From assembly GCA_963809885.1 (NCBI GenBank), contig CAWELA010000003.1, positions 130,625 to 194,624 on the forward strand: DNA of 64,000 nt, in the 5' to 3' direction. Below are positions 1 through 50,219 of this stretch, in pieces. How positions within the stretch are numbered: the stretch's first letter is position 1; each line of letters starts with the position of its first letter. The notes under the pieces are model-generated. The model worked only from the letters and a program-made list of their open reading frames with translations, ran no database searches and had not been told where the DNA came from. Position numbers and translations under genes: made by a program. This DNA is from an uncultured Acidimicrobiia bacterium (GTDB lineage: Bacteria; Actinomycetota; Acidimicrobiia; IMCC26256; PALSA-555).

Positions 1-2006
1 GTGCGCCGGGCGTCAGCGCCTCGACGGCGGCGATGTGCTCCTCGCTGCGGGCGACGAGGTTGTGCACGTACTGGAGCCGTCCGTCCTGCACGTAGAAGCT
101 GAAGCCTCCGAAGGTCGCGCCCATGGCGAGGAGCACGCCGTCGGCGTCCCCGTCGGCGACGCCGGCGGGCAGCTCGACCTCGGCGGTGATCGTGTGCGAG
201 CGTCGCTTCACGTCGACGGCGACCGCCTCGGGGACCATCCCGCCGGGTCGGTACTCGTAGCGGGTGCGCGCGGGCCAGGGTCGGGGCGCGGGGTCGAAGA
301 TCGCCACCTGCGGTCGGTTGTCGAGCGGCAGCACCTGGTAGCGCTCGGCCTCCTGCCACCAGAGGTCCTGCAGCTCCCGGAGCTTCTCGGGGTGCTCGGC
401 CGCGAGGTCGTGGCTCTCGGAGAAGTCCTCGGCGACGTGGAACAGCTCCCAGACGTCGTCGTCGAAGGGCAGGTCCGGGTCGTCGTCGAGGCTGTACATC
501 TTGCCGAGGGGCTTCCAGGTCACCGCCTTCCACCCGTCGTGGTAGATCGCCCGCGAGCCGAGCATCTCGAAGTACTGGGTGTCGCGGGTCGGGGCCGACG
601 CGTCGGAGAACGTCGCGAGGAAGCTCGCGCCCTCGACCGGCTGCTGCTCCACTCCGTCGATCTGCGCGGGCGGGGCGATCCCGATCGCGTCGAGGATCGT
701 GGGGAGCACGTCGATCGCGTGGACGAACTGGCGTCGCTGCTCGCCGCGCACGGCGATCCCGCGCGGCCAGTGCACGATGCACGGGTCGGCGACGCCGCCT
801 TCGTGGGTCTCGCGCTTCCAGCGACGCAGCGGCGTGTTCCCCGCCATCGTCCAGCCCCACGGGTAGTTGTTGTGCACGGTCGGCCCACCGATGTCGTCGA
901 TGCGGGTGATCATCTCCGCGACGCCGGCCGGCATCGCGTTCCAGAGGCGGACGTCGTTGATCGAGCCGTGCGCGCCGCCCTCGGAGCTCGCGCCGTTGTC
1001 GCTCACCAGGACGATGATCGTGTTCGTCGAGCTCGCCGGACTCCTCGAGCGCGGCGACGACGCGTCCGATCTGGGCGTCGGCGTGCGAGAGGAAGGCCGC
1101 GAAGCACTCCATGAACCGGGCCGCGAGGCGCTGCTCGTCGGCCGAGAGCGAGTCCCAGGCGGGGACCCAGTCGGGACGCGGCGGGAGCTCGGTTCCCTCG
1201 GGGACGATGCCCTCGGCGACCTGGCGGGCGAAGATCGAGTCGCGCCACGCATCCCAGCCCATGTCGAAGCGCCCGGCGTACTGCTCGATCCACTCGGCCG
1301 GCGCCTGGTGCGGCGAGTGGCACGCGCCGGTGCAGAAGTAGAGGAAGAACGGCTTCTCGGTGTCGACGGCCCGCAGGTCGTTGATGCACTCGATCGCGTG
1401 GTCGGCGAGGTCCTCGGTGAGGTGGTAGCCGTCCTCGTAGGTGCCGGGTGGCTCGACGAAGTGGTTGTCGTGCACGAGGTCGGGTGCGAACTGGTGGGTC
1501 TCGCCGTGGAAGAAGCCGTAGAAGCGCTCGAAGCCGCGCCCGAGCGGCCACCGCGACCGGGGGCCGGCGAGATGCGAGTCCTCGTCGGGGGTCAGGTGCC
1601 ACTTGCCGATCGCGTAGGTCGCGTAGCCCTCGTCGCGCAGGATCTCGGAGAGGAACCCGGCCGAGCGGGGGATGCGTCCGGAGTACCCGGGGAAGCCGCG
1701 GGCCAGGTCCGTGATCCGTCCCATCCCGACCGAGTGGTGGTTGCGGCCGGTGAGGAGGCAGGCCCGGGTCGGCGAGCAGAGGGCGGTGGTGTGGAAGCCC
1801 GTGTACTGCAGGCCGCCGGCGGCGAGACCGTCGAACGTCGGCGTGTCGATGTCGGAGCCGTAGCAGCCGAGCTGTGCGAAGCCGACGTCGTCGAGCACGA
1901 CGAGCACCACGTTGGGTGCGCCCTCGGGCGGTCCGTCGTGCTCGGGCCACCAGGGCTCCGACTCGCGCCAGTCCCGCCCGATCGGTGCCCTGGAAGTCGT
2001 GGCCAT
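1..2006 (-). pseudogene. Cys-type arylsulfatase (formylglycine sulfatase family); 3' end runs off the window; one frame disruption
   Basis: Reverse strand from ATG 2006 reads MATTSRAPIGRDWRESEPWWPEHDGPPEGAPNVVLVVLDDVGFAQLGCYGSDIDTPTFDGLAAGGLQYTGFHTTALCSPTRACLLTGRNHHS (CxPxR signature), then ...KWHLTP...FLYFCTGACHSPHQAP. It is absent from the ORF track because no stop is reached inside the window. Near 1025 the conserved GELDNTIIVLVSDNGAS block reads GELDEHDHRPGER (one extra nt). The shifted frame then continues as sulfatase (NNYPWGWTMAGNTPLRRWKRETHEGG...). Confidence 0.85.
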
Positions 2007-2054
2007 CGATCCGGGGACCGGTCGTCCGGGGTCGGCTGTCCTGCGGGCGCGTGC

Positions 2055-3244
2055 TCATGAGGTGCTCCAGGTGACGTGCAACGCGGTCGGATGGCGAAGG
2101 ACGCCGCCGACCGGCAGTGCCCCGGTCGGATCGGCGAGGGTGAGCCCGGGGAGGCGCTCGAGCACCACGCCGAGCGCGGTGAGCATCTCGCGTCGCGCCA
2201 GGTGCGATCCCGGGCAGAACTTCTGCCCGAACCCGAACGTGACGACGTCTTGCGGCTCGCGGGTCGGGTCGAACTCGTCGGGGTTCGACCACGCCCGCGG
2301 GTCGCGGTTCGCGGCCGCGATGCCGAAGAGCAGCAGGGTGTCGGGCTCGTACTCCTGGTCTCCGAAGCGGGCGCCCAGCGGTGCGAGCCTCGGCAGGGTG
2401 GCCACGGGGCCGTCCCAGCGCAGCAGCTCGTGGACGATGCCGGCGCGGAGGTGCTCGTCGCTCGCGTGCCTGTTCGAGGAGCGCGGGGCGGTGCAACAAC
2501 GCCGAGAGCGTGTTCCCGAGCGCGTGCGACGTCGTGGTCGCGCCGACGGTGAACATCAAGCGGACCGTGGAGCACACCTCGGCATCATCGAGGACCTGCC
2601 CGTCGACCTCGGCCGCGAGGAGCGCGGAGAGCAGGTCGTCCTGCGGGTGGCGCACGGCGCGCGTCGAGCAGCGGTTGGAGGATGACGGAGAACTCCTCGG
2701 CCGCCCGCACGGCACCATCGGGGTCGCTCGGGTACGTGAGCATCGCGTCCGCCCACGCGCGCATCTCGTCGTCAGACGCACGGGGCACGCCGAGCTTGCG
2801 CGTGATCGCGTAGTACGGGAGCACCGCAGTGAGCTCGGCGACGAGGTCGGCCTCACCGCGGCCCGCGAACCGGTCGACGATCTCGTGTGCGAGGGGGAGC
2901 AGCGCTTCCTCGTCGAACCGGGCCACCGCACGCGAGCGGAACGCCGGCGTCGCGAGCGCTCGGTGCCGGTCGTGCTCCTTGCCGTCCATGCTGATGAACG
3001 TGCGTCCGACGACCGGCTCGGTGTGCATCTGGTAGGTCGAGCCGGCAGGCAGGTGCTCGTCGTCCCGGAACGCCTCCTTGACGTCGTCGAAGCGCGTGAC
3101 GAGCTGGGCCTCGGTCCCGAAGAACCGCACGGGGACCACACGCCCGGACTCCCGCAGCCGGCCGAGCGCGGTGTGCAGGTCGTCGCCCGGGAGCAGATCC
3201 ATGCCCAGGTCGATCGCCGGGTCGACCGCGGTCGTTGCGCTCAT
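2055..3244 (-). pseudogene. cytochrome P450 monooxygenase, two frame disruptions
   Basis: Three collinear reverse-strand frame segments. 3244 to ~2655: MSATTAVDPAIDLG...DRFAGRGEADLVAELTAVLPYYAITRKLGV...EEFSVILQPLLDARRA. ~2655 to ~2460: HPQDDLLSALLAAEVDGQVLDDAEVCSTVRLMFTVGATTTSHALGNTLSALL. ~2460 to 2055: IVHELLRWDGPVATLPR...FGFGQKFCPGSHLARRE (ExxR and the haem-thiolate FxxGxxxCxG loop). The ATG overlaps the upstream stop (ATGA at 3241-3244). Confidence 0.85.
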
Positions 3245-4505
3245 GCGGGTGTCGCGGGGCTCACCACACCCGCGTCGCGCAGCTTCGCGATCTCGGCGTC
3301 GGACAGCCCGAGGTCGGTGCGCAGGACCTCCTCGGTGTGCTCGCCGACCCAGGCCGGTCGGGTCTCGGGTCCCTCGGCGACCTTCGTCATCTTCACGGGG
3401 TTGCCGGGGATGAGGACCGGGTTGGCGACGCCGTCGTCGCGGGGCAGCTCGACGAGCATGTTGCGCGCCGCGACGTGCGGGTCGGCGATGACGTCCTCGG
3501 CGTCGTTCACCGGACCGGCCGCGATGCCGGCCGCGTTGAGGTCGTGACAGCAGTCGAGCTTGGTCTTGCCCGCGGCCCAGGCGTCGACCGCGGGGCGGAT
3601 CACGCTCTCGAGCTCGCGTCGCCAACCCTCGCGGGTCGCGAATCGTCGGGTCGTCGAGCCACTCGGGGTGTCCGATCATCTCGGCGAGGCGTTGGAACTG
3701 GTGCTCGCGCCCGACCTGCACCACGAACCAGCCGTCGGTGGCCTGGAACCCGTCCATGATGAGGAGCGGGCCGAGACCGTCGGGTCGCATGCCCATCGAC
3801 CAGAAGTTCACCACGAGGTCGGCCATGGCGACCATCGAGTCGAGCATCGCGATGTCGACGTACTGGCCCTCGCCGGTGCGATCGCGGTGGCGGAGCGCGG
3901 CGAGGATGCCGATGGTGGCGAAGAGCGAGCTCGAGATGTCGCCGAGGGCGCCGGCCGGCGCGACGAGTGGCGGCTTTCCCGGCTCCTGCTTGTAGTCGTA
4001 GAGGCCGGACATCGCTTCGGCGATCGGTGCGTACGCCGCCCACGAGTCGTACGGCGACTCGATCGTGTTCCCGAAGCCCGACACCGACGCGTAGATGACC
4101 GTCGGGTGGACGGCGAGCACGTCCTCGTAGGCGAGGCCGAGCTTCTTCATCGTCCCGGCGCGGAAGTTCTCCGCGACGACGTCGTAGTGCGGCGCGAGCG
4201 CCAGGAACAGCTCCCGCCCCTCGGGCTGCTTGAGGTCGATGCCGATGCTGCGCTTGTCGAGGGCGTTCCGCAGGAAGGTCGCACCGACGCGCCGCCCCCA
4301 CGGGTCGGTGATCGCCGGCAGGGCGCCCCGGCCGGACTCTCCCTCGAGTCGGGTGCTCGACCTTCACCACGTCGGCCCCGAGCCGGGCGAGCAGCTGCGT
4401 CCCGTACGGGAGTGCCTGCATCTGCTCGGCGGCGAGGATGCGTACCCCATCGAGCGGCTTGCCGTACTGCGCGGCCCCTGCGTTCGCGACCTCCCCGAGC
4501 TTCAT
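3241..4505 (-). pseudogene. family III CoA-transferase (CaiB/BaiF type), two frame disruptions
   Basis: 4505 to ~4340: MKLGEVANAGAAQYGKPLDGVRILAAEQMQALPYGTQLLARLGADVVKVEHPTRG. ~4340 to ~3645: ESGRGALPAITDPWGRRVGATFLRNALDKRSIGIDLKQPEGRELFLALAPHYDVVAENFRAGTMKKLGLAYEDVLAVHPTVIYASVSGFG...GEGQYVDIAMLDS. ~3645 to 3241: RFATREGWRRELESVIRPAVDAWAAGKTKLDCCHDLNAAGIAAGPVNDAEDVIADPHVAARNMLVEL. Confidence 0.8.
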
Positions 4506-4575
4506 CGGCGCATCGTACGGCGCGACGCCGCGACGGTGCCCGTCCCGCTCGGTCCGCCCTCGGGATCGGGCGGTG

Positions 4576-5040
4576 CTACCCGTCCCCGAACATGGCGGCG
4601 GCGCGTCGGTCGATCTCCTCGGGCGACACGTCCTCGATGTGGGTGTGGATCGACCACCGGTGCCCGAAGGGGTCCTCGAGGTCTTCCGGCGCGGTCCCCG
4701 TAGAACTGGTCCTCGACCGGGCGGATCTCGTTCGCACCGGCCGCGATCGCCTTCGCGAACGTCGCGTCGACGTCGGGCACGTAGATCGTGAGCGTCACCG
4801 GCGACCCGCCGATGGTCTTCGGGCCGCGGGCGTTCATCTCGGGGTACTCGTCGGAGAGCATCACGGTCGAGTCGCCGATCTTGACCTCGGCGTGGCCGAT
4901 CTTCCCGTCCGGTGCGGGGATCCGGTACGACTCGGTCCGTCGAACACGTCGCAGTAGAAGTCGATCGCGGCGGCGGCACCGTCGACGCACAGGTACGGGG
5001 CGACGGTGTGGGACTCGGCGGGCTGGTGGTGCACGGCCAT
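4576..5040 (-). pseudogene. VOC/glyoxalase-fold protein (PhnB/YjdN-like), two frame disruptions
   Basis: From ATG 5040: MAVHHQPAESHTVAPYLCVDGAAAAIDFYCDVFDG | TESYRIPAPDGKIGHAEVKIGDSTVMLSDEYPEMNARGPKTIGGSPVTLTIYVPDVDATFAKAIAAGANEIRPVEDQFYGDRAG | LEDPFGHRWSIHTHIEDVSPEEIDRRAAAMFGDG, then stop. There is a 1-nt deletion near 4945 and a 1-nt insertion near 4682, so the total length is still divisible by 3. Confidence 0.7.
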
Positions 5041-5158
5041 GGCGGGCTCCTCGGGTCCGGGCGCGGGCGTCGGGGTCGAACAGATGTTCGCAGCCTACGT
5101 GTCGGCCCCGAGATCGGGTCAAGAGCACGACGAGCGCGCCTGCCTAGTCTCCGGTCCC

Positions 5159-5761
5159 ATGGCAGGGGCCGTCTCGATCCGCCGGGCGACCGCAGGGGAC
5201 CGCAGCACGTCGGTCGACACCGCGGCGCGCGCCTTCGCCGCCGATCCGTTCATCCGGTACCTCATGCCCGACGACGAGCGGTACTAGGCGGACGCGGCTC
5301 GCTTCTTCGGCTTGCTCTTCGACACCCGTCTCGCCGGCGGCGAGCTGTGGTGCACCGACGACTGTGCGGCGGTCGCCCAGTGGAACGCGCCGGGCGGGAA
5401 CCGCATGGGCGGCGACTGGGTGGACGCGCAGTGGGACGCGATCGAGCCCGAGCTGCACCCGGCGACGATCCCCGGGGTGGAGCGTCTCGACCACGCGCTG
5501 ACGCCGACCTGGCCGGACGGGCCGCACTGGTACCTCGGTGTCCTCGCGACGCACCCGGACCGCCAGGGGCGGGGCCTCGGCTCGGCCGTGCTCGTGCCGG
5601 GGCTGGCCGAGGCCGATGCCGCGGGCCTCGCGTCGTACCTCGTGACGGCGACGGAGGCGAACGTGGCGTTCTACGCACGGCACGGTTTCGGGATCCACGT
5701 CGAGGTGGACCTGCCGCACGGGCCGCACATCTGGATGCTCGGCCGGCCCGCGGGCGGGTGA
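5159..5761 (+). pseudogene. GNAT family N-acetyltransferase interrupted by an in-frame TAG
   Basis: ATG 5159: MAGAVSIRRATAGDRSTSVDTAARAFAADPFIRYLMPDDERY, then TAG at 5285-5287, then ADAARFFGLLFDTRLAGGELW...HWYLGVLATHPDRQGRGLGSAVLVPGLAEADAAGLASYLVTATEANVAFYARHGF (acetyl-CoA-binding RxxGxG motif). ORFs 5006..5287 and 5312..5761 share one frame, and no stop lies in 5288-5311. Confidence 0.75.
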
Positions 5762-5857
5762 CGATCGCCCGTGAGCGACCTGGGCACCGTTGCCCGGCCG
5801 TGGTCCGACGGGCTCCGACCTGACGCTGCTGTCACCTCGCCAGGTACGCTCGGCCGT

Positions 5858-7265
5858 ATGCGAGGAATCCTGAGTGCAGCCGGCTACGTGCCCTACTGGC
5901 GGCTCGATCGGACCCAGATCGGTGCGACCTTCGGGAGCGGCGGAGGCAAGGGCACCCGAGCCGTCGCGTCGTACGACGAGGACACCACGACGATGGGTGT
6001 CGAGGCCGCGCGGCTGGCGCTGGCGTCGGCGGGTGGCGTCGACCCGGGTGCGCTGGCGTTCGCTACCGCGTCGCCCGCGTACCTCGACAAGACCAACGCG
6101 ACCACCATGCACGCGGTGCTGCGACTCGACCGCACGGTGCCGGCGTACGACTTCGGTGGCGCGGTCCGCTCGGCGAACGGCGCACTGCTCGCCGCGTTGA
6201 TCGGCGGTCCGTCGGTGCTCGTCGTGAGCTCCGACGAGCGCAACGGTCTCCCGACCAGCGCCGACGAGTCGGCGGGTGGCGACGCAGCGGCGGCGATCCT
6301 GGTCGGCTCCGACGAGGACGGCCCCGTGCTCGCCGAGCTCCTCGGCGTCGGGACCACCACCGAGGAGTTCATCGACCGCTGGCGGCTCCCCGGCGAGCCG
6401 CGCTCGAAGGCATGGGAAGAGCGGTTCGGCGAGACGAAGTACGTCCCGCTCGGCGAGGAGGCGTGGAACGCCGCGCTGAAGTCCGCAGAGCTCTCGCCCG
6501 ACCAGGTCGACCACCTCATCGTCGCCGGCCCCCACCCGCGCGCGGTGCGCTCGCTCACGCCGCGCCTCGGCGTCGAGCCGGCCAAGGTCGTCGACGGCTT
6601 GGCGGCGACGGTCGGCTACACGGGGACTGCGCACGTCGCGCTGCTGCTCGCGTCGGTGCTCGAGACCGCGAAGCCCGGTGAGGTCATCGGCGTCGTCTCG
6701 ATCGCCGACGGCGCCGACGCGATGCTGTTCCGCACGACGGACGCCCTTGGCTCGTACGTCGCCGGCCCGCACCGTGGCGCAGCAGATCGAGGCCCGCGCC
6801 GAGGTCGCCTACGGGAAGTTCTTCGCCTGGCGCGACTGGGTCACGCTCGAGCCGCCGCGTCGCCCCGAGCCAGGCCGTATCTCGGGCGCGATCTCGGGTC
6901 GCCGGGAGGACTGGAAGTACGGGTTCGTCGGCTCCAAGGACCGATCGAGCGGTGCATTGCACCTCCCCCCGGCCCGGGTATCGATGGTGGGTGGCGCGCA
7001 GGACGACATGGAGGCGGCGCCGATGGCCGACCACGTCGGCACCATCGCGACGTTCACGATCGACAAGATCGCGTACTCGCCCAGCCCGCCGATCGTGTTC
7101 GCGGTCGTCGACTTCGACGGCGGCGGTCGTACGGCCGTCGAGCTCTGCGACGTGAACGCGGACGACCTGAAGATGGGCGACCGGGTCGAGATGACGTTCC
7201 GTCGCCTCTTCACCGCCGACAGCATCCACAACTACTTCTGGAAGGCGCGCCCGGTCCGCGGCTGA
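5858..7265 (+). pseudogene. thiolase-fold (HMG-CoA synthase-like) domain fused to a DUF35 OB-fold domain, one frame disruption
   Basis: ATG 5858: MRGILSAAGYVPYWRLDRTQIG...GTRAVASYDEDTTTMGVEAARLAL...VGYTGTAHVALLLASVLE (frame of ORF 5771..7369). After a 1-nt shift near 6765 it joins RTVAQQIEARAEVAYGKFFAWRDW...GTIATFTIDKIAYSPSPPIVFAVVDFDGGGRTAVELCDVNADDLKMGDRVEMTFRRL (ORF 6678..7265, DUF35 C-terminal OB fold). Confidence 0.7.
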
Positions 7266-7304
7266 GCGGACGGGAGCGACCGCACGGAGGAGGACGGCGA
7301 CTCC

Positions 7305-8499
7305 ATGGCATCGCACGGGATCAAGGACCAGGTCGCCATCGTCGGGATGGGCTGCACCAAGTTCGGTGAGCACTGGGACAAGGGCACCGACGACCTGCTG
7401 ATCTGGTCGACGGGCGAGGCGCTCGAGAGCGCCGGGGTCGCGAAGGACGACATCGACGCGTACTGGCTCGGCACCGCGATGTCGGGCAACTCGGGCCAGA
7501 CGCTCGCGCGGCCGCTGGGCATCCAGAAGCCGGTGACCCGCGTCGAGAACTACTGCGCGACCGGCTCCGAGGCGCTGCGCAACGCGGCGTACGCGGTCGC
7601 GTCGGGCGCCTACGACGTCGCGATGGCGGTCGGAGTCGAGAAGGTCAAGGACAGCGGGTACCAGGGCCTCGTCGGCGCGAGCCATGCTCCGACCGACGGA
7701 ACGGCCCGCGCACTGTCGGCGGCCGCGATGTTCGCGATGTGCGCCCCTGCGTACGGCGCGAAGTACGGCGTCAGCGACGACGAGATGCGCGAGGTGCTCG
7801 CCCGCATCTCGTGGAAGAACCACCAGAACGGCTCGGTCAACGAGCGGGCGCAGTTCCGCAAGCCCGTCACGATGGACACGATCTGCAGCGCGCCGCTCAT
7901 GGCCGGCACGCTTCGCGTCTTCGACTGCTCGGGTGTCGCCGACGGCTCGGCCGCGGCGATCGTCGTGCGCGCCGAGGACGCGCTGAAGTACACGGACAAG
8001 CCCCTGTACATCAAGGGTCTCTCGTTCATCGCCGGCGACGGCACCGGCAACGCCGAACCCCGACTACGACTACACGTGGTTCCCGGAGATCAACATGGCC
8101 GGCAAGGACGCCTACGCGCAGGCGGGCGTCACCGATCCCCGCAGCCAGATCGCGATGGCCGAGGTGCACGACTGCTTCACGCCGGCCGAGCTGCTGATCT
8201 ACGAGGACCTCGGCTTCGCCGAGCGCGGCACCGCATGGAAGGAGGTGCTCAACGGCACCTTCGACCTGCTCGGTGACCTGCCGGTGAACCCCGACGGCGG
8301 CCTCAAGAGCTTCGGCCACCCGGTCGGAGCGAGCGGACTGCGGATGTTCTTCGAGAACTGGCTCCAGCTGCGCGGTGAGGCGCCGCCCGAGCGCACGATC
8401 AAGACCGCGGACCGCGGCCTCGGCCTCGTGCACAACCTCGGTGGTTACCCGGGCGAGATGGTCAGCTTCGTGGGGATCGTCGGCAACCAGCTCGGCTAG
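7305..8499 (+). pseudogene. SCP-x/Ltp-type thiolase (acetyl-CoA C-acyltransferase family), one frame disruption
   Basis: RBS GGAGGAGGA precedes ATG 7305: MASHGIKDQVAIVGMGCTKFGEHW...VENYCATGSEALRNAAYAVASGAYD (nucleophilic Cys). A 1-nt insertion lies near 8053. ORF 8095..8499 continues NMAGKDAYAQAGV...AEVHDCFTPAELLIYEDLGF...NPDGGLKSFGHPVGASGLRM. Confidence 0.85.
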
Positions 8500-9852: not shown

Positions 9853-10116
9853 CGCGTCCCCCCGCTGGTTCGGCGCCCCGGTCGACGGTGAGGTCTGGGC
9901 GACGAGATCATGCCCCGAACGGCGGGGTTGGTGGGAGCGGCGCCAGCGCGGCGCGCAGCGCCTCGAGGTCGGCGCGCTCGAGGTCGGCCGGCGGCTCGAC
10001 CGCCGCTCGATCAGCTCGGCCTTCGTCTTCTCCAGCGGGGGTTCCTCGAGGGATCCGCGCGAAGATCGGGATCACCCGCCTCTCCCCCGAGGGCCGACCC
10101 TCCGCCGAGGACCGAC

Positions 10117-12304: not shown

Positions 12305-12323
12305 GGATCCCACGGCGTCGCGG

Positions 12324-17587: not shown

Positions 17588-17592
17588 CGTCT

Positions 17593-33239: not shown

Positions 33240-33283
33240 CTCGATTGACGTCCCCGCGGCGTCCGTGACGACAGGGGCGATGC

Positions 33284-35487: not shown

Positions 35488-35522
35488 TAGAAGTGCTGCC
35501 TGAGCAACCGAGGAGTCTTGCG

Positions 35523-36847: not shown

Positions 36848-36957
36848 CTCGTCGTCCGACCTGTCGCCCGGCGCGTCGCCCTTCGCCTCGATTCCACCCA
36901 CGGGGCGATCATGGCACTCCGGCGCCCACGATCGGTGCGGCGTCGTAGATTGCACCC

Positions 36958-38265: not shown

Positions 38266-38320
38266 CCACGTTCGCCGAGCTGCCCTCGGACCTCTTCCTC
38301 CCTGAACCTGCCCACGCGAC

Positions 38321-40567: not shown

Positions 40568-40631
40568 CTGTCACCCGGCACCTCGCTGCCGCACACACCT
40601 CGGTGGCCGGGACGACTCGGGTCGGCGCCGC

Positions 40632-41852: not shown

Positions 41853-42450
41853 CTGGCGACCGCCTGGCAGGACGGCTCGGCAGCGAACGCGGTGACGAGC
41901 GCTGCTGGCGTCCGTGTCGCGTGCCGTGGAGAACGCGGCCTGGATGCTCTCGAGCCCCGACTCGACCGCGTCCTGCGCTCCGCGGACCGCGGCGGTGAAG
42001 GTCGCGGCTGTCGGCCGGGTCGGCGCTCGCGAGCGACCGCTTCGCGCCCTTCAGCGAGCTCTGCACCTGCCGGAAGCCCTCGTTGACCGTCGCAGCGATC
42101 TGCTTGCCACCCGCGACCTTCGGCTTGCCGGCATTCGCGAGCTTCGCCCGCAGCTTCGCGGTCTCCTTCGCGGTGCGGGTCAGCATCGCGGTGAGGGCCT
42201 TCTTCGTCGCGGCCGCGGTCGTCGGGCTCGCGTCGGCGGCCTTCGACGATGCGTTGTCGACGGCCCCGACCCAGGCGTCGAGCGCGCCGCACACCGACTT
42301 GGCCCACGGTCCCGGGGCCGTCGCCGGCACCGACTCCCGGGTGTCGGCGCTTGCGGTCGTGGCCGGGACGGCCGCGGCGAGGGTCCCGCAGAGGACGGTC
42401 GCGGCGAGGATCCGGGCCGAGTGGCGGCGGTGGCAGTCAGATCGGCTCAC
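41849..42450 (-). pseudogene. secreted hypothetical protein (signal peptide), two frame disruptions
   Basis: GTG 42450: VSRSDCHRRHSARILAATVLCGTLAAAVPATTASADTRESVPATAPGPWAKSVCGALDAWVGAVDNASSK...AGGKQIAATVNEGFRQVQSSLKGAKRSLASADPADSR | TFTAAVRGAQDAVESGLESIQAAFSTARDTDA | PAALVTAFAAEPSCQAVAS, then stop at 41849. Shifts lie near 42005 and 41905. Confidence 0.5.
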
Positions 42451-42567
42451 GGCGTGGCACGCTACCCGCCCGACCCCCGGTCGCCACGAGTCGGCCGCAA
42501 CCGGCCCGGTTTGACTCGACCCCGGCCGGTCGCCCCAGACTGGCCGCCGCCTTCGAAGGAGCTCTGC

Positions 42568-43095
42568 GTGCGCCGTCGGCTCGTGCTCGGGATCGTGATG
42601 ACTGCCGCCGTGGTCGTGCTCGCGGCCTCCGCTGCGATGGGCGCGACCGGCGACGACACCGTCTCCCTCGCGACGGTCGACCCCGCGGCCGGGCCGTCGG
42701 GCACGGAGGTGGCCTTCACGCTCGCCGGGACCGACGACGCGGGCGTCTCGGAGTGCCTCACGTCGAGCGCCTACCGCCTCGAGTTCCTCGCGCCCGACGG
42801 AGTGCTCGCCGCGACGGGTGGTGACACGGTCGCGGTCCCGGCGGACGCGCAGGCTGGCGACGCCTCCATCCGGCTCGTCTGCTACGTCCCTGACGCCACC
42901 GGGCGGCGTGTGATCCACGGCTTGTGCGGCCGCTTCGTCGTGACCGAGCCCGGAGCAGTCGTGCCGCCGGCCGGAGCGGCGGCGATCGCGTGCGCAGCGA
43001 CGCCGCGGTTGGCCCTGAGCCAGTCGGTCATCGCCGTCGAGCGCGCGATCTCGGAGGCGTTCAACCCGATCCTCGCGGCGCCACTCACGGGCTGA
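42568..43095 (+). CDS. secreted hypothetical protein
   Basis: GAAGGAG lies 6 nt before GTG 42568: VRRRLVLGIVMTAAVVVLAASAAMGATGDDTVSLATVDPAAGPSGTEVAFTLAGTDDAGVSECL...IRLVCYVPDATGRRVIHGLCGRFVVTEPG. It has a signal peptide and four Cys residues. Intact. Confidence 0.5.
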   Translation: MRRRLVLGIVMTAAVVVLAASAAMGATGDDTVSLATVDPAAGPSGTEVAFTLAGTDDAGVSECLTSSAYRLEFLAPDGVLAATGGDTVAVPADAQAGDASIRLVCYVPDATGRRVIHGLCGRFVVTEPGAVVPPAGAAAIACAATPRLALSQSVIAVERAISEAFNPILAAPLTG

Positions 43096-43156
43096 GGGGG
43101 AGCGTCCCCCGGCTGCGTCACCCTCGCGAGGCTCGTCCGACGGGCAGAATGACCCG

Positions 43157-43777
43157 ATGGAGGAGGCGGGGATCCTGCTGTTCGCGTTCTTCGTCGGCGC
43201 GATCCCCTTCTCGAACCTCGTCGCCAAGAGAACGCGCGGCGTCGACCTGCGGACCACCGGCTCGGGCACGGTGTCCGGCACCTCCGTCTACCGCGTTGCC
43301 GGCTTCCGATGGCTCGTGGTGTCCGGGATCCTCGACGTGGCGAAGGGCACCGTCGGTCCGCTCCTCGCCGGTTCGGGGCGTCCGACGCTCGCCGCGTTCG
43401 CCGGCGGCCTCGCGGTCGCCGGGCACGACTGGTCCCCGTTCCTGAAGGGGCACGGTGGGCGTGGAGTCGGCCCGGCCGTCGGAGCGCTGCTGATCAACGC
43501 GTGGCCCGGGGTGGTCGTGCTCCTCGGCTGCATGGTCGTCGCGCGCGCCTTCCGCGAGACCGGGCTCGGCGGCTTCATCGGTGAGGTGCTGCTCGCACCC
43601 GTGCTCGCCGTCACGAACGGACCCGCGGGCGCGCTCGCCGGAGGTGCGGTGGCGCTCCCGATGCTGGTGAAGCGGATCATCGGCAACGAACGACCGCAGA
43701 CGCCGGGTTGGCACGTGTACCTGCACCGCCTGCTGTACGACCGCGATCCCGGCGAGCCAGATCTGTCCAAGCCGTGA
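43157..43777 (+). CDS. plsY: PlsY-family glycerol-3-phosphate acyltransferase homologue (divergent motif 1)
   Basis: Intact 206-aa ORF: MEEAGILLFAFFVGAIPFSNLVAKR...DLRTTGSGTVSGTSVYR (GSGNxGxTN-like with N replaced by T) ...ILDVAKGTVGPLL ...VAGHDWSPFLKGHGGRGVG. Confidence 0.6.
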   Translation: MEEAGILLFAFFVGAIPFSNLVAKRTRGVDLRTTGSGTVSGTSVYRVAGFRWLVVSGILDVAKGTVGPLLAGSGRPTLAAFAGGLAVAGHDWSPFLKGHGGRGVGPAVGALLINAWPGVVVLLGCMVVARAFRETGLGGFIGEVLLAPVLAVTNGPAGALAGGAVALPMLVKRIIGNERPQTPGWHVYLHRLLYDRDPGEPDLSKP

Positions 43778-44995
43778 GCGTCCGGGAGCTGCTCCGCCGC
43801 CGCGGCTTCCGCGATCTGCTGGTCGGGCAGGGCGTGTCGGGGCTCGGCGACTGGATGGGCACCGTCGCCTTCATGGCGCTCGCGCTCGAGCTCACGGGTT
43901 CGCCGACCGCCGTCGGCGGGATCCTCACGCTTCGATTACTCCCCGCCGCGCTCGGCGGCCCCCTCGCGACGCCGCGCCGTCATGCACTGGGACCGTCGCC
44001 GAACGATGCTCGCGATGGATGCGCTGCGCGCCGCGGTGATCGCCGCGGTGCCGTTCATCCGCGCGATCTGGTGGGTGTACATGTGCGCGTTCCTCCTGGA
44101 GGTTGCGAGTCTCGTGTTCCTCCCGGCGCGGGACTCGTCGATCCCCGACCTCGTCGAGACCGAGGACTTCTCCCTCGCGAACGGGCTCGTGCTCGGGTCG
44201 TCGTACGGCACGATCCCGCTCGGCGCCGGGCTCTTCGCCGCGGTCGCGGCGCTCCCGTTCTCCGAGCTCTTCGGACGCCCGTTCGCGCTCGTCTTCTGGA
44301 TCGACGCGGGGACCTTCCTCGTCTCGTTCCTCTTCATCACCCGCCTCCACATGCTCGCCGCGTCCGACGACTCGCTCGTGCCCGAGGACGTGCGCTTCCT
44401 CGATGCGTTCAAGCTGCCGCTCGTCCGAGCGGTCATGCCGGCGTGCGCGGCGGTCGCGCTCGGGCTGGGCGCGCTGTTCTCGCTCGGGATCGTGTTCGTG
44501 CGGGAGGTCCTGCACGCGTCGGACGCGGAGTTCGGCGTCCTCATCGCGCTCTTCGGGATCGGTGCCGCGGCCGGCCTCGGGGTCCTGTACGTGCGGCGCG
44601 GACACGATCCGCTCACCGAGACGCGGCTCGGTGTCGCCGTGATCGGCGGGGTGGTGGCGGTGTTCAGCCTGGTGGGGTCGGTGGCCTTCGCGTTCCTCGG
44701 TGCGACCGCGTTCGGAGCGGCGGCCGCGTTCACCCTCTCGTCGGGGATGGGGGCGCTCCAGTCCCGGCTCGACGGCCACGAGCGGGTGCTCGCGTTCGCG
44801 GCGTTCCACGTGGTGATCCGACTGGGCCTCGGCCTCGCCGCGATCGGCGCCGGGCTGGCCGGTGACCTCCTCGGGGACGTGACCTGGCCCTGGGTGGGCC
44901 AGCTCGAGCCGTCGCGGGTGGTCCTGCTCTCGTCGGGTCTCCTGGTGATCATGTCGTCGGCCCTCGTCCGAGTGCGCGAGAGTCCTGCTCCATGA
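43774..44995 (+). pseudogene. MFS transporter, one frame disruption
   Basis: GTG 43774 forms a GTGA overlap with the plsY stop: VSVRELLRRRGFRDLLVGQGVSGLGDWMGTVAFMALALELTGSPTAVGGILTLRLLPAALGGPLAT. A shift lies near 43970. It continues RAVMHWDRRRTMLAMDALRAAVIAAVPF...12-TM-type hydrophobic profile to 44995 (ORF 43982..44995). Confidence 0.7.
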
Positions 44996-45830
44996 CCGTC
45001 GCGATCGTCACCGACAGCGCCGCGGCGCTCCGCCGCGAGCTGGTGACCCGGCACGGGATCATCGTGGTCCCGATGTGGCTGACCATCCGCGGGCGAGCCC
45101 GAGCTCGAGGGCGAACGCCCCCTGCAGGAGCTCGTGGACGAGGAGCAGGTCACGACGTCGGCGCCGACGCCCGGCGAGTTCGAGGGCGCGATCAAGGACT
45201 CGCTGCGAGCCCACGACTCGGCCCTCGTGCTGACGATCGCGTCGTCGATGAGCGCGACCTACCAGTCGGCGATCGTCGCGGCGCACTCGGTCGGGGGTGA
45301 GGTGCGCGTCATCGACACCGCGAACGCCGGGGGCGCCGAGGCGCTGGTGGTGCTCGCCGCCGCGGAGGCCGCTGGACATGGCGCGTCGGTCGACGAGGTC
45401 GAGGAGCGAGCCCGAACCGTGATCGAGCGGGTGCGTCTCGTCGCGACGCTGTCGTCGCTCGATCACCTGGTGCGCAGCGGCCGGGTCCCGGGGATCGCGG
45501 GATGGGCAGGACGTCGGCTGGGGATCAACCCACTGTTCGAGTTCCGCGGCGGCAAGGTGCTCCGACTGCGGCCCGCACTGAGCCAGGACGCGGCCCTCGA
45601 CCGCATCGTCGCGATGGTGCGGCGGACCCGGCCCGACGACGCCGTGGGCGACGCCGCGGCTCCATGTGGCCGCATTGCACGCGCTCGCGGTCGGGACGGC
45701 CGAGGCGCTGCGCGCTCGGGTGCACGAGTTCGCGCCGGCGACGGAGTTCGTCGGGGAGTTCGGGCCGGTGATGGTCGTGCACACCGGTGCTGGGCTCGCC
45801 GGCCTCGCCTGGTGGTGGGAGCCCCGCTGA
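44992..45830 (+). pseudogene. DegV family (fatty-acid-binding, FakB-like) protein, two frame disruptions
   Basis: ATG 44992 forms an ATGA overlap with the MFS stop: MTVAIVTDSAAALRRELVTRHGIIVVPMWLTI | AGEPELEGERPLQELVDEEQVTTSAPTPGEFEGAIKDSL...ALVLTIASSMSATYQSAIVAA...VRVIDTANAGGAEALVVL...LVATLSSLDHLVRSGRV...RRLGINPLFEFRGGKV...DDAVGD | PRLHVAALHALAVGTAEALRARV...FGPVMVVHTGAGLAGLAWWWEPR, then stop at 45828-45830. Shifts lie near 45088 and 45652. Confidence 0.75.
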
Positions 45831-45874
45831 CCCACCCGGCCCCCGGGGGTGTCTCTCACCCGGCTCCGCCCTGG

Positions 45875-46606
45875 TCAGGGACGCAGGTCCAGGATCTCGT
45901 CGATCGCGCGGCGGATCGGCTCGATCGACGGGGCCTCGAACGCGTGTCCCATCTCGTCGACGACCTCGAGCCGAGACGGGTCGCGAGCCGCGGCGGCAAG
46001 GACCCTCGCGTCCGCGACCGGGATGAACGGGTCGGCGTTGCCGTGCACGATGGTGAGCGGGACACCGACCGCGCCGACGAGGTCGACGGGCGGCGCGGGG
46101 CGGGGCGCGGGACGCGCGATCCGCACCCCGACATAGCGCCGGGCGGCCCAGCGCCCCGGCGGCGTGTGCGTCATGAGAGCCGACGCGAGTCCACGTGAGT
46201 TGCGGGGCAGCCGCCAGCGCGCCGGGCAGCTCACGGTGACGACACCGGTCACGCGCCCCGGTGCACCCGCCGCGTACCGCAGTGCCGCGATGGCGCCCAC
46301 CGACGCGCCGACGAGCACGACGGGTTCGGCGTCGACCGAGTCGACTGCCGCCGCGACGTCCAACCGCTCCAGGTCGCCGAGTGTGGCCTCGCCCCCCGAT
46401 GTGCCGTGGCCTCGGGCGTCGTATCCCACCACCGTGATGCCCCTTGCCGTCAGGTGCTCCGCGACGGCGACCACCTTCTCCTCGGTGCTCGACGCCGCGA
46501 ACCCGTGGACGAGCACCACCGTCGCTCGCGACCTGCCCTGCGGGGACCAGCGCCGCGCGCTGAGCCGGACGTCGTCGGCGGTGACGAGGTCGAAGGTCTC
46601 GGTCAC
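45875..46606 (-). CDS. alpha/beta hydrolase
   Basis: GTG 46606 forms a GTGA overlap with the cysQ stop: VTETFDLVTADDVRLSARRWSPQGRSRATVVLVHGFAASS...GYDARGHGTSGG...VVLVGASVGAIAAL (GxSxG) ...IVHGNADPFI...DEMGHAF. Intact. Confidence 0.75.
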   Translation of the reverse strand: MTETFDLVTADDVRLSARRWSPQGRSRATVVLVHGFAASSTEEKVVAVAEHLTARGITVVGYDARGHGTSGGEATLGDLERLDVAAAVDSVDAEPVVLVGASVGAIAALRYAAGAPGRVTGVVTVSCPARWRLPRNSRGLASALMTHTPPGRWAARRYVGVRIARPAPRPAPPVDLVGAVGVPLTIVHGNADPFIPVADARVLAAAARDPSRLEVVDEMGHAFEAPSIEPIRRAIDEILDLRP

Positions 46607-47346
46607 GACGCCGCGGCCGCGAGCACGGCCTCGGCGAGCTCGGGACGACAGACGATGAGATCGGGGAGCCACGGATCGCGCCGGTTGTAGACGAGCGGTG
46701 ATCCATCGAGCCGGGAGACGTGGAAGCCGGACGCCGCGGCGACTGCCGCTGGCGCGGCCGAGTCCCACTCGTACTGGCCGCCCGCGTGCACGTAGGCGTC
46801 GACCTGACCGTCGACGACCGCCATCGCCTTTGCCCCGGCTGAACCCATCCCGACGAGCTCGGCGTCGAGCGCGTCGGCGACCCGCCGCGCCGCGGCAGGA
46901 GGACGCGACCGACTCACCACGACGCGCAGCTGCCGTCTGTCGTTGGACGGGATGGCCGACGGCTCGCCGGTCCACAGCACGCGATCCTGCGCCGGGAGCG
47001 CGACCGCTCCCGCGACGAGTCCCTTTCCACTGACCCACAGCGCGACGTGTACGGCCCAGTCGGTACGCCCCGCCTCCGTGAACTCACGCGTGCCGTCGAG
47101 TGGATCCACGATCCAGACCCGGTCGGCCTCGAGGCGCCGGGGGTCGTCGGCCGACTCCTCCGACAGGACGCGGTCCTCGCCGTGCTCCGCGGCGAGCAGC
47201 TCGAGCAGACGGCGGTTCGCGAGCACGTCGCCGGCATCCCCGAGCGACCAACGGGCGAGCTCGGCACTTGCTCCCTGTTCGCGCAACCGGAGCAGCACTG
47301 CGCCCGCCTCGGTCGCGTATCGGGCGGCGTCGTCGTGGTCCGTCAT
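46603..47346 (-). CDS. cysQ: inositol-monophosphatase-superfamily 3'(2'),5'-bisphosphate nucleotidase (CysQ-like)
   Basis: Intact 247-aa ORF: ...VLSEESADD...VWIVDPLDGTREF...DWAVHVAL...GSAGAKAMAVVDG...EWDSAAPAAVA (EE...DPxDGT...WD motifs). Confidence 0.7.
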   Translation of the reverse strand: MTDHDDAARYATEAGAVLLRLREQGASAELARWSLGDAGDVLANRRLLELLAAEHGEDRVLSEESADDPRRLEADRVWIVDPLDGTREFTEAGRTDWAVHVALWVSGKGLVAGAVALPAQDRVLWTGEPSAIPSNDRRQLRVVVSRSRPPAAARRVADALDAELVGMGSAGAKAMAVVDGQVDAYVHAGGQYEWDSAAPAAVAAASGFHVSRLDGSPLVYNRRDPWLPDLIVCRPELAEAVLAAAAS

Positions 47347-47462
47347 GGCCCGGGCATTCTGTCCGACGGATGGCCTTGGCCGCGGATTGGTGCCGGCTTC
47401 ATCGGCCGCTCACACGGGTGCCGTTCTCTGGGGTACGTACCCCGAGGAGAGGAATCCCCAAG

Positions 47463-47951
47463 ATGAACACCTCAGCCAAGAAGATGCTCGCCACCGTCAC
47501 GGCTGCCGGTCTGCTGAGTCTCGGCGCGACCGGCGTCGGGTTCGCGGCCGAGAACGGCCCCGACAGCGGTTCGAACGACAAGCCGCCCGCGGCCCAGGAG
47601 CAGGGATCGGCCCACGGCACCCGCCGGGGTGTCCGTCGGGCGGCGATCAAGACCGCTGCGGAAGCCGCGGCCGCGACCATCGGCGTCGAGGTCTCCGACC
47701 TCAAGACCGCGGTCACGGGCGGTCAGACGGTCGGTGCGTTCGCAGCGTCGAAGGACGTGTCGGCCGAGAGCGTGGTGGCTGCCGTCGCCAAGGCGCTGAA
47801 CGACCGCGTCGACCAGGCCGTCACCGACGGCAAGGTCACCGCCGAACGCGCCACGAAGGCGAAGGAGCGGATCCCCGAGCTCGCCGATCGCTTCGTCAAC
47901 ACGGTGCCGAAGCGCTTCCAGACGGCGACCCCGGCCCCGTCGGACGGCTGA
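47463..47951 (+). CDS. secreted hypothetical protein
   Basis: GAGGAGAGGA lies upstream of ATG 47463: MNTSAKKMLATVTAAGLLSLGATGVGFAAENGPDSG... (signal peptide), then an Ala/Lys-rich helical region. Intact to 47951. Confidence 0.5.
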   Translation: MNTSAKKMLATVTAAGLLSLGATGVGFAAENGPDSGSNDKPPAAQEQGSAHGTRRGVRRAAIKTAAEAAAATIGVEVSDLKTAVTGGQTVGAFAASKDVSAESVVAAVAKALNDRVDQAVTDGKVTAERATKAKERIPELADRFVNTVPKRFQTATPAPSDG

Positions 47952-48016
47952 CCGCCGCCGTCCCGCTCCGACGCCCTGCTCCCGGGACGGCCCCCGGGGG
48001 TGGCAGTTCCCGCCGC

Positions 48017-48052
48017 ACGACGCCCGCCGGGGTCCACCCCGGCGGGCGTCGT
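48017..48052 (+). terminator. intrinsic-terminator-like hairpin (16-bp perfect GC-rich stem, 4-nt loop)
   Basis: ACGACGCCCGCCGGGG-tcca-CCCCGGCGGGCGTCGT, with every pair checked by hand. It lies 65 nt after the stop at 47951. There is no U-tract, which is common in GC-rich actinobacteria. Confidence 0.55.
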
Positions 48053-48192
48053 CGCGCCCGGGCTTCCGCGCGCGGCGGCACCGTCTACTACCGTCCGCCT
48101 GAGCCGCTGGCCTGTCGACCGAGGCGGCCCCATCGCCGAGAACGGCCCCGAGCCAAGCCTCCGAGCCGATCGCACCCCGAGGGGACCTTTCC

Positions 48193-48898
48193 ATGAGCTA
48201 CCCGCAGAACCCCGATCCCACCATGCCGGTGCCCGAGCAGGGCCCACCGACTGGGCGGCGATCCCACGGTTCCGGTGCAGCCGGGCTCCGGCGAACCGAC
48301 GGTCCCGGTGCAGCCGGGGTACGGCGGCGCGGGAGGTGGTCCGGGTGGGCCCGAGGGCCCGGTCGGGGACGAGGAAGAGGACGAGAACAACCGCAAGCTC
48401 TGGCTGATCGCCCTGGGCGTCTTGATCTTCGGACTGATCATCGGCATCATCATCGCCCTGCTCGCCAGCGGCGGCGGGGGCGGGGGGACCGACACCACGT
48501 CGACCAGCAGCTCGAGCTCGACGACCAGCTCGAGCAGCACGACCTCGTCGTCGTCGACCTCAACCACTGCAGCCACCACGCCGGCCGGTCCGCAGATCAA
48601 CCAGTTCACGGTCAGTCAGAACCCCGTGAGCTGTCCGGGGACGGCCAACGTCGTCCTGACCTGGTCGACCCAGAACGCGCAGAGCGTCACGATCAGCATC
48701 GACAACCCGAACGGTCCCTACGGCACGTACGGGCCGTCGGGCCAGCAGCAGGTGCCGTTCGCGTGCGGAGCCGGGCCGAGCCCGACCCAGCACACCTACT
48801 ACCTGCAGGCGACGGGCGCGAACAATCAGAAGGCCAACAAGTCGCTCCAGGTCACGGGCAACTTCCCGCCGGCAACCACGACCTCGACCAGGACCTGA
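48193..48898 (+). pseudogene. single-pass membrane protein with a Pro-rich repeat N-terminus, Ser/Thr-rich linker and a C-terminal globular domain; one frame disruption
   Basis: ATG 48193: MSYPQNPDPTMPVPEQGPPTG. A shift lies near 48252. It continues GDPTVPVQPGSGEPTVPVQPGYGGAGGGPGGPEGPVGDEEEDENNRKLWLIALGVLIFGLIIGIIIALLASGGGGGGTDTTSTSSSSSTTSSSSTTSSSSTSTTAATTPAGPQINQFTVSQNPVSCPG...VPFACGAG... (ORF 48275..48898). Confidence 0.55.
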
Positions 48899-49003
48899 TC
48901 CCGGCGGACCCCATGTCGACATCCTGGGTTACCAGCGGGTAACATAGCGGGATCGGCCGGTCTCCCCGTGACCGGCCGGCCCCGCATCCCCCAGGAGGCA
49001 GCC

Positions 49004-50219
49004 GTGTCGGACTTCTCGCTCGAGCTCAACGAGGACCAGCTCCAGATCCAGAAGTGGGTCCACGACTTCGCGGAGAACGTCATCCGCCCCGCCGCCCACG
49101 AGTGGGACGAGCGGGAGGAGACCCCGTGGCCGATCATCGAGGAGGCGGCCAAGGTCGGCCTGTACTCCCTCGAGTTCTTCGCCAACGCGACCGCCGATCC
49201 CGCCGGTCTGATGCTCGCCCTCGCGCTCGAGGAGCTCGCGTGGGGCGACGCGGGCATCGGCCTCGCCATCGTCGGCAGCACCCTCGCCGTCACGGGGATC
49301 ATGGCCAACGGCACGCCCGAGCAGTGGGGCGAGTGGCTGCCGCAGTGCTTCGGCACACCCGAGAAGATCGCGCTCGGCGCGTTCGCGGTGAGCGAGCCCG
49401 ACGCCGGCAGCGACGTCAGCAACCTCCGCACGCGTGCCGTCTACGACGAGGCCAAGGACGAGTGGGTCCTCAACGGCACCAAGACGTGGATCACGAACGG
49501 CGGCATCGCTGACGTGCACGTCGTCGTCGCGGCCGTCGATCCCGAGCTCAAGGCGCGCGGGCAGGCGAGCTTCGTGATCGGACCGAACACGAAGGGCCTC
49601 AGCCAGGGGCAGAAGTTCAAGAAGCACGGCATCCGCGCGAGCCACACCGCCGAAGTCATCCTCGACGACGTGCGCATTCCGGGCTCCCAGCTGCTCGGTG
49701 GCAAGGAGAAGCTCGACGCCCGCCTCGCTCGCGCCAAGGAGGGCCAGGCGACCAAGACGCAGGCCGCCATGGCCACCTTCGAGGCCAGCCGCCCGCTCGT
49801 CGGCGCGCAGGCGATCGGCATCGCCACGAGCCGCGTACGAGTACTCGCTCGACTACGCCAAGGAGCGAAAGGCGTTCGGCAGGGCGATCATCGAGAACCA
49901 GGGGATCGCGTTCAAGCTCGCCGACATGCACATGGAGATCGACGCGGCGCGGCTGCTCGTGTGGCGCGCGTGCTGGATGGCCGCGAACAAGAAGCCGTTC
50001 ACCGCAGGCGAGGGCTCGATGAGCAAGCTCAAGGCCGGCGAGGTCGCGGTCAAGGTCACCGAGGAGGCGATCCAGATCCTCGGCGGCTATGGCTACACGC
50101 GCGAGTACCCGGTCGAGCGTTGGCACCGCGACTCGAAGATCTACACGATCTTCGAGGGCACCTCCGAGATCCAGCGACTGGTCATGGCGCGCGCCATCTC
50201 CGGCGTCCACATCCTGTAG
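49004..50219 (+). pseudogene. acyl-CoA dehydrogenase, one frame disruption
   Basis: CAGGAGG lies 5 nt before GTG 49004: VSDFSLELNEDQLQIQKWVHDFAENVIRPAAHEWDEREETPW...FAVSEPDAGSDVSNLRTRA...WVLNGTKTWITNGGIADVHVV...AQAIGIA. A shift lies near 49822. It continues [34 protein letters not shown]...[37 protein letters not shown] (ORF 49698..50219). Confidence 0.85.

Follow-up and report, generated by a model that had tools for sequence, protein, structure and literature searches.

The 64,000-nt stretch of uncultured Acidimicrobiia DNA analysed here (the window) carries broken reading frames in gene after gene over its first 50 kb, which raises the question of whether a lineage is losing these genes or whether the deposited sequence is at fault. 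We consider it very probable that the broken frames are consensus errors of a long-read-derived metagenome assembly, a conclusion that is strongly supported, short of proof, and that was drawn from sequence comparison. The preliminary description of this DNA had likewise favoured patches of poor consensus over 28 independent pseudogenes, and every sequence-level test that we ran supports that view. On the best reading, then, the disruption would be a matter of data quality and not of biology.

The whole window was aligned to syntenic DNA from three related Acidimicrobiia that come from three separate data sets, namely contig_4208 of MAG MFD05442.bin.1.1, hereafter the sister (loci L001, L006 and L003), GCA_038321755.1 (loci L002 and L005) and JGI Ga0436876_0006403 (locus L009). 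DNA alignments, including MAFFT alignments, were complemented at the protein level by tblastn of the relatives' intact proteins against the window, and reading frames were called along the window, free of any alignment, with a GC3 frame HMM. The sister is a Nanopore-only MAG produced with Flye plus Medaka (PMC12313526); it is part of the Microflora Danica soil and sediment catalogue. A scan of a genome collection recovered this MAG and no genome of the same species, megablast of positions 1-20 kb against a plasmid collection returned nothing beyond short MMPL matches, and Rfam and tRNA scans of the 64-kb window gave no matches.

Alignment to the three relatives identified 78 lineage-specific single-base insertions, about five two-base insertions and four polarised single-base deletions (7305, 10299, 29193 and 38312), in total about 86 window-specific events that are not multiples of three, 95% of them insertions and all located no further along than 50.3 kb; the extra bases are absent from all three relatives, and nine more 1-nt "deletions" visible against the sister alone are unpolarised and excluded from these counts. 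All 61 indel positions listed in the preliminary description are supported, 59 of them by an alignment-derived indel at most 20 nt away, and positions 29432 and 30927 by tblastn frame jumps together with a stretch of 1-2 extra nucleotides in the window. As a total, the figure of about 61 was an underestimate, with about 33 more events, some of them near gene ends, in intergenic DNA or in close pairs (28791/28806, 29025/29043 and 40145/40156), and the statement that insertions and deletions both occur is only nominally true, the balance being 78 single-base insertions to four polarised deletions. The GC3 frame HMM matches the earlier list of frame switches nearly one to one. Per 10 kb it counts 18.7 frame segments in positions 1-50.3 kb, where the median length of a coding segment is 397 nt, and 10.9 in 50.3-64 kb, where that median is 1000 nt; five loci of the relatives have 9-12.7. 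The relatives' intact proteins match the window as consecutive HSPs in differing frames at 90-100% amino acid identity, in line with the earlier observation that every segment, read in its own frame, remains well-conserved protein, and comparison with syntenic loci, a check suggested at the time, confirms the indels as specific to the window.

The events are far from evenly spread (Table). Counts per 2-kb bin have a variance/mean of 3.1 (chi-square p = 1e-8 for the whole window), which bears out the clustering claimed earlier; clustering persists inside the first 50 kb alone (p = 1e-4), and at the mean rate the probability of zero events in the last 13.7 kb is 6e-10. Patches with 2-3 events per kb are separated by clean stretches 7-14 kb long, and the scale of patchiness is 2-14 kb, across unrelated genes and both strands. 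As had been stated for the first 19.8 kb, each real gene in patch A is affected. Patch B runs through a sulfatase, a P450, an SDR and a molybdopterin oxidoreductase gene on both strands, and here as in the window overall the disruption of unrelated genes on either strand was correctly described. Event 19786 lies within a stretch that had been labelled clean; alignment with L009 over 23142-24688 and with L005 over 24795-26728 showed no indels, and intergenic events near 35496-35520, in the second sparse stretch, are ambiguous. The last clear event, 49824, falls in an acyl-CoA dehydrogenase gene, where the disruptions had been said to end (about 49.8 kb), and the 1-nt gaps left against L003 beyond 50.3 kb are intergenic, sit in badly aligned sequence or leave the window's ORF unbroken.

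Table. Indel-rich and sparse stretches of the window and individual disrupted genes (positions in the window).
Feature	Position	Strand	Events and remarks
Indel-rich patch A	900..19800		43 single-base insertions, ~2.2 per kb (vs L001, L002, L009)
Patch A, other events			-1 deletions 7305, 10299; 2-nt insertions 5679, 6537
Substitution-type in-frame stop	5285..5287	+	TAG vs CTC (Leu) in sister; GNAT acetyltransferase gene
MMPL transporter gene	10186..12301	+	9 events: 10210, 10299, 10871, 11035, 11415, 11577, 11639, 11746, 12279
AMP-dependent ligase gene	12333..13782	-	7 insertions: 12357, 13307, 13349, 13438, 13667, 13687, 13741
Sparse stretch	19801..26728		21124 (intergenic) and 22077 (aminotransferase) only
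Class I/II aminotransferase, 329-aa ORF	21196..22185	+	Cut short by insertion 22077; out-of-frame tail ~100 nt
Indel-rich patch B	26729..30930		12 single-base insertions; -1 deletion 29193; extra bases near 29443 and 30923
SDR gene	28409..29204	+	Densest burst: 9 events in 796 nt, ~11 per kb
Sparse stretch	30931..38300		Eight intact genes; one clear insertion, 36918 (intergenic)
Indel-rich patch C	38312..50225		20 single-base insertions, ~1.7 per kb; -1 deletion 38312
Clean stretch	50300..64000		No convincing window-specific frameshifting indels

What happens when the extra bases are taken out is equally informative. Nearly all genes then become full-length single-frame matches at 80-98% amino acid identity, and where their best single HSP had spanned 40-70% of the orthologue, it now spans 97-100%. 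Frame segments drop to 10.5 per 10 kb, as in the relatives, compared with 18.7 before repair. The repaired MMPL gene, for example, gives a single HSP over 100% of its 703-aa orthologue at 95% identity, and the repaired SDR gene matches 100% of a 263-aa orthologue at 93% identity. For the P450 gene at 2054-3244 clean repair was not reached (62% identity afterwards); its sole comparator is the Nanopore sister, whose sequence may hold errors of its own at this gene, and events 2265, 2277 and 2697 are unpolarised. The 935-aa ORF 12764..15571 is indeed chimeric, as had been suspected, because it spans the AMP-dependent ligase gene and two enoyl-CoA hydratase genes. The single in-frame stop noted earlier was also confirmed, and after repair is the sole genuine one in about 50 kb.

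The inserted bases themselves (C28 G26 T12 A11) are composed much like the background (G36 C35 T15 A14%). At 77 sites the run length at the inserted base is one in 47, two in 23, three in six and four in one, so that 61% have no identical neighbour, compared with 49% expected under random insertion. There is no homopolymer enrichment over random insertion at these sites, and therefore the artefact would not be of the homopolymer type; nor was a motif seen in a sequence logo of positions -6 to +6. About one in ten events is intergenic (for example 9853, 9891, 12314, 21124 and 36918), roughly the non-coding share, and the events, found in intergenic DNA and in genes of both strands, show no preference for coding DNA, for either strand or for any gene function.

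These properties bear directly on the idea that a lineage is shedding catabolic genes (sulfatases, P450s, beta-oxidation-type genes and transporters) by recent, large-scale frameshifting. More than 25 genes are disrupted, many with dispensable catabolic functions, at least one of the disruptions is found in the public record and one nonsense codon is real; even so, we regard this scenario as highly improbable, since apart from the indels the affected genes bear the marks of normal purifying selection. Substitutions on the window's branch fall on codon positions 1/2/3 in proportions of 19/13/68%, compared with 17/12/71% for the sister, and within the indel-rich regions the two branches have 16/13/71% and 14/11/75%, respectively; a flatter spectrum, indicative of relaxed constraint, was not seen in disrupted genes, including those in indel-rich patches and those with 7-9 events. 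As a proxy, the codon positions already point to a per-gene dN/dS on the window's branch like that of intact orthologues. The window's branch carries 506 substitutions to the sister's 621, hence no excess, and one nonsense codon accompanies about 86 non-3n indels. In bacterial mutation-accumulation studies, indels are about ten times rarer than substitutions; 2-3 neutral indels per kb would then imply hundreds of extra substitutions, shared equally among the codon positions, and at least 12 nonsense codons, which are not seen. Natural 1-nt indels cluster in homopolymers, and those in the window do not; bacterial mutation is reportedly deletion-biased (Mira, Ochman and Moran 2001; Kuo and Ochman 2009), the opposite of the 95% insertions found here. 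Moreover, up to nine independent events in one 800-nt gene would be purposeless once that gene was dead, yet its flanking codons are still 93% identical to the orthologue, and the abrupt end at 50.3 kb and the clean blocks of 7-14 kb are unrelated to gene function.

Long-read consensus error would account for this pattern if stray single bases had survived in places with few supporting reads or with failed polishing, while better-supported stretches came out clean. The cause is probably that long reads were locally sparse or of poor quality; the patch size of 2-14 kb is on the length scale of such reads, and the large contig of 646,909 bp is probably the product of a long-read assembler. In long-read MAGs, indels that truncate genes by frameshift, and do so more severely at low coverage, are a documented artefact (PMC9262707; PMC13087279). 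The Nanopore-only sister has +1 insertions of its own outside homopolymers (window-equivalent positions 10172, 18326, 27537 and 35281), at about 0.1 per kb or a tenth of the window's rate, and these cut short its MMPL gene (703 vs 726 aa), a P450 gene (336 vs 404 aa), a 417-aa gene and an RDD gene. One feature fits less well. Textbook Nanopore errors are homopolymer deletions, whereas the window has homopolymer-independent events that are 95% insertions and come without accompanying substitution errors; where raw single reads carry a region, mismatches and deletions would be expected as well, and this counts against consensus error.

A variant of the same reading attributes the extra bases to strain heterogeneity and not to low depth, with co-existing strains collapsed into one sequence and the polisher adding spurious bases in divergent patches. 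The patchy, multi-kb pattern agrees with it, the window almost certainly derives from a complex metagenome, and the sister comes from a soil and sediment catalogue. We think it very unlikely all the same, as a mixed-strain consensus is expected to carry an excess of window-specific substitutions in the indel-rich patches, and there is none (506 compared with the sister's 621). It is just as hard to credit that the extra bases are real and that about 80 untemplated +1 insertions, gathered in multi-kb patches, arose in one very recent burst and became fixed in a near-clonal Acidimicrobiia population. Such a burst could conceivably stem from error-prone repair synthesis acting patch by patch or from an intercalating mutagen, and it would need to have happened so recently that decay by substitution had not yet set in.

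That the frameshifts are real and are corrected at expression, by programmed ribosomal frameshifting, transcriptional slippage or RNA editing that would take out the surplus base, seems barely conceivable. Each frame segment does encode well-conserved protein, and some endosymbionts do rescue frameshifts in this way at poly(A) tracts, but a slippery motif, homopolymer or conserved context is absent around the 77 sites, none of these sites is common to any relative, and the events reach nine per gene, extend into intergenic DNA and lie in patches over unrelated genes on both strands. Noise added outside the public record is rejected because frameshift 22077 sits in a public gene call.

That gene call deserves a further word. 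The exact 329-aa product of ORF 21196-22185, the aminotransferase, for which the GC3 frame HMM places the frame switch at 22085, is present in a public protein collection on the NCBI/ENA contig. An exact look-up of 20 ORF guesses matched five public gene calls, four intact and this one truncated by a frameshift; the remaining guessed ORFs with frameshifts or off-frame stretches had no exact public match, and these misses are uninformative because their start codons are guesses that may differ from the choices made in the public calls.

The value of these results is practical and not biological. In multi-kb patches of a public contig a stray base turns up every 300-500 nt, and every 90 nt in the gene that is hit hardest. 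ORF-based gene calls in these patches are truncated, split or chimeric, and pathway, completeness and pangenome analyses would wrongly score more than 25 genes as pseudogenes or as absent. Nearly all of them are repairable by frame-aware comparison with relatives, and the insertion-dominated, homopolymer-independent and patchy signature is a useful flag for such regions when reads are not at hand.

Among known systems, Mycobacterium leprae, Sodalis glossinidius and host-restricted Salmonella serovars resemble the window in that many neighbouring genes have frame disruptions. These reductive genomes differ in their nonsense substitutions, larger deletions, deletional bias and raised dN/dS, and have multiple lesions only in old pseudogenes, whereas the indels of the window, more than 80 of them, are biased towards insertion and go with a single nonsense codon and with normal constraint on codon positions. 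In programmed +1/-1 frameshifting and transcriptional slippage, as in the window, a one-base shift would bring the frame back, yet these mechanisms need a conserved slippery site that is used once per gene and kept in relatives, none of which applies to the window. The window also resembles the consensus indels of long-read (Nanopore or PacBio CLR) assemblies, in which ORFs are broken while frame segments stay conserved and genes of any function or strand are affected, although the classic form is homopolymer-linked, often deletion-biased and evenly spread, and the window has insertions in multi-kb patches. Such fragmentation of gene calls is measured by the IDEEL test and is corrected by tools such as proovframe or by short-read polishing.

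The window, with a G+C of 71%, has Acidimicrobiia MAGs as its top protein matches, and the Pfam families of the orthologues indicate a gene content of metabolism and transport (Table). The orthologue of the stitched MMPL protein, at 92% identity, lies on contig_4208 (2.46 Mb) of "uncultured Acidimicrobiia bacterium MFD05442.bin.1.1", here called the sister, of which the loci L001, L006 and L003 together follow the gene order of the window over 0.7-64 kb, at a nucleotide identity of 84-92%. Loci L002 and L005 of GCA_038321755.1 span 6.9-42 kb at ~80-87%, and L009 (JGI Ga0436876_0006403) spans 16.8-21.1 and 23.1-24.9 kb at 85%. As an alignment-free check, we applied a seven-state HMM to the G+C of the three codon positions, which returned 112 frame segments in the window. 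Their density is 18.7 per 10 kb in 1-50.3 kb, where the coding segments have a median length of 397 nt, and 10.9 per 10 kb in 50.3-64 kb, where this median is 1000 nt. Five loci of the relatives gave 9.1-12.7 segments per 10 kb. The internal frame switches match almost one to one the 61 disruptions that the preliminary description had listed. Likewise, intact proteins of the relatives align to the window as consecutive HSPs that change frame at 90-100% identity; for example, residues 1-252 of the thiolase match frame 3 and residues 251-397 match frame 1 (97-100% identity).

Events were called from three-way and pairwise MAFFT alignments with the relatives. This comparison of syntenic loci, which the preliminary description had proposed, traced almost all breaks to a single additional base that is present in the window and in none of the relatives. 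In total, the window carries 78 +1 insertions (26729 included), about five 2-nt insertions and four polarised -1 deletions; nine more 1-nt gaps, visible against the Nanopore sister only, were kept unpolarised. An alignment-derived event lies within 20 nt of 59 of the 61 listed disruptions, and those listed at 29432 and 30927 show frame jumps with extra bases near 29443 and 30923. The list was therefore real but undercounted, as it lacked 33 events, many of them near gene ends, intergenic or in close pairs. The 935-aa ORF 12764..15571, described as stitched, indeed crosses three real genes. Deleting the extra bases and padding the four deletions yielded 67 gene-sized frame segments (10.5 per 10 kb), and for nearly all genes the best single tblastn HSP, which had covered 40-70% of the orthologue length, now covered 97-100% of it, with repaired genes 80-98% identical to their orthologues. 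Twenty-five of the 39 mapped genes were disrupted, with nine events each in the MMPL and SDR genes and seven in the AMP-ligase gene.

The proposed regional clustering of the disruptions is borne out by a variance/mean ratio of 3.1 per 2-kb bin (chi-square p = 1e-8), and it persists (p = 1e-4) when only the first 50 kb is considered. If events occurred at the mean rate throughout, the final 13.7 kb would be free of them with a probability of 6e-10. Alignment of 23.1-26.7 kb with L009 and L005 revealed no indels.

Insertions and other features (window coordinates unless a sister locus is named).
Feature	Position	Observation	Rate or basis
Insertions	0.9-19.8 kb	43	2.2 per kb
Insertions	19.8-26.7 kb	2	sparse
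Insertions	26.7-30.4 kb	12	3.2 per kb
Insertions	30.4-38.3 kb	1	sparse
Insertions	38.3-50.3 kb	20	1.7 per kb
Insertions	50.3-64 kb	0	clean
Polarised -1 deletions	7305, 10299, 29193, 38312		MAFFT
Sister's own insertions	L001 ~9986, ~18113; L006 ~537, ~8316	window-equivalent 10172, 18326, 27537, 35281	alignments
Sulfatases, P450s, CoA-transferase, thiolase, MMPL transporter, AMP-ligase, enoyl-CoA hydratases	window		Pfam of orthologues
Acyl-CoA dehydrogenase, aminotransferases, SDR, molybdopterin oxidoreductase, amidohydrolase, MFS transporter, DegV, others	window		Pfam of orthologues
Molybdate ABC transporter	ORFs 50232-52895		reading of the ORFs rather than database match
In-frame stop	5285-5287	TAG (CTC in sister)	
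ORF with public product	21196-22185	329 aa	exact match
Aminotransferase block	21100-23142	~2 kb	
Conserved leader	31359-31752 (+)	~394 nt	
HD-domain gene	31750-33147		
562-aa ORF	33284-34972	public protein P0121	
365-aa gene copy difference	40575-40606	single copy in window	

The inserted bases (C28 G26 T12 A11) follow the background composition, 47 of 77 have no identical neighbour base (random insertion expectation, 49%), and only seven fall in runs of at least three. No sequence motif was found at positions -6 to +6 around the insertions, and the intergenic share of events, about a tenth, approximates the non-coding fraction. Across ~23,300 aligned, outgroup-polarised coding sites, 19/13/68% of the window-unique substitutions (n=959) fall at codon positions 1/2/3, against 17/12/71% of the sister-unique ones (n=1117). 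In the indel-rich regions, the window spectrum is 16/13/71%, and unique substitutions are fewer in the window (506) than in the sister (621). These spectra, together with the lack of a substitution excess over the sister, show that purifying selection has acted on the disrupted genes in the ordinary way throughout the branch. One genuine in-frame stop was left after repair, a TAG that is the sole substitution-type case. It lies in a GNAT acetyltransferase gene that also has a 2-nt insertion at 5679; the codon adjoining it differs from the sister as well, so that a minor mis-call confined to this spot could explain the stop in place of a point mutation.

The insertion signature, the repair and the selection tests support the earlier reading of low-quality consensus patches, and we hold with high confidence that the frame disruptions are an assembly consensus artefact and not a biological feature. 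That the errors are insertions only, with no added substitutions, points to a bias introduced in building or polishing the consensus, not to the sequence of raw single reads. Real pseudogenisation is very improbable. Bacterial indel mutations are about ten-fold rarer than substitutions, deletion-biased and concentrated in homopolymers, so that 2-3 neutral indels per kb should be accompanied by unconstrained substitutions in the hundreds and by numerous nonsense codons, and on every count, including the deletion and homopolymer bias, the data are the opposite. Correction at the expression level is less probable still. For 1-50 kb of this record, ORF calls cannot be relied on.

The HD-domain gene is preceded by an ultra-conserved leader. 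Five lineages (window, L006, L005, L007 and L008) share ~330 nt of it without change, although their flanking genes are just 78-91% identical. It holds an RBS and a 30-codon ORF, MKKNVARVTALVGSLVALTMSGGAWFKV(R/K)*, with zero synonymous changes. In the structure predicted by RNAalifold (-183 kcal/mol), the leader pairs over a long range with this small ORF, one hairpin has compensatory changes (alignment columns 58-79), and a comparison with Rfam gave no match, even at E<=1. Possibly, this is a structured RNA or a leader peptide of Acidimicrobiia that has yet to be described. In the relatives, two neighbouring genes take the place of a 562-aa ORF of the window, with 446+136 aa (L005) and 455+135 aa (L006). 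More than 100 homologues cover just ~72% of its length, several small indels at the junction (34520-34564) differ across the three genomes, and the ORF may be either a genuine fusion or a further consensus error. A 365-aa gene of unassigned function, present once in the window, has two tandem paralogues in L005 and L006 (~53% aa identity to each other; window ~1 kb shorter), which look too divergent for a collapsed repeat; the genomes probably do differ in gene content here. Finally, gene content varies within the genus at a block of the window that holds a class I/II aminotransferase and the next gene (~250 aa): at least its start is found in the sister (L001), but it is missing from L005, and from L009 between the class III aminotransferase and TauD/TetR genes.

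An ORF that is cut short by the insertion at 22077, which leaves its tail out of frame, has its exact 329-aa product in the public protein collection; this entry comes from a 646,909-bp NCBI/ENA contig that also encodes the window's intact proteins. The Microflora Danica long-read catalogue, which includes the sister MAG, was built from Nanopore reads only, with Flye as assembler and a single Medaka polishing round, and its authors noted lower coding density in low-coverage MAGs (PMC12313526). In our alignments the sister has its own +1 non-homopolymer insertions (~0.1 per kb), by which its MMPL (703 versus 726 aa), P450 (336 versus 404 aa), RDD-domain (74 versus 173 aa) and 417-aa genes are shortened or split. 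The sister's sulfatase at the start of L001 is split as well. The patches in the window, at 2-14 kb, are of the scale of long reads. The sister's Nanopore-only origin and its own insertions, together with the indel-caused frameshift truncation that is well documented in long-read assemblies and worse at low coverage (PMC9262707, PMC13087279), suggest that the window stems from a long-read metagenome contig with a thin consensus in three multi-kb patches.
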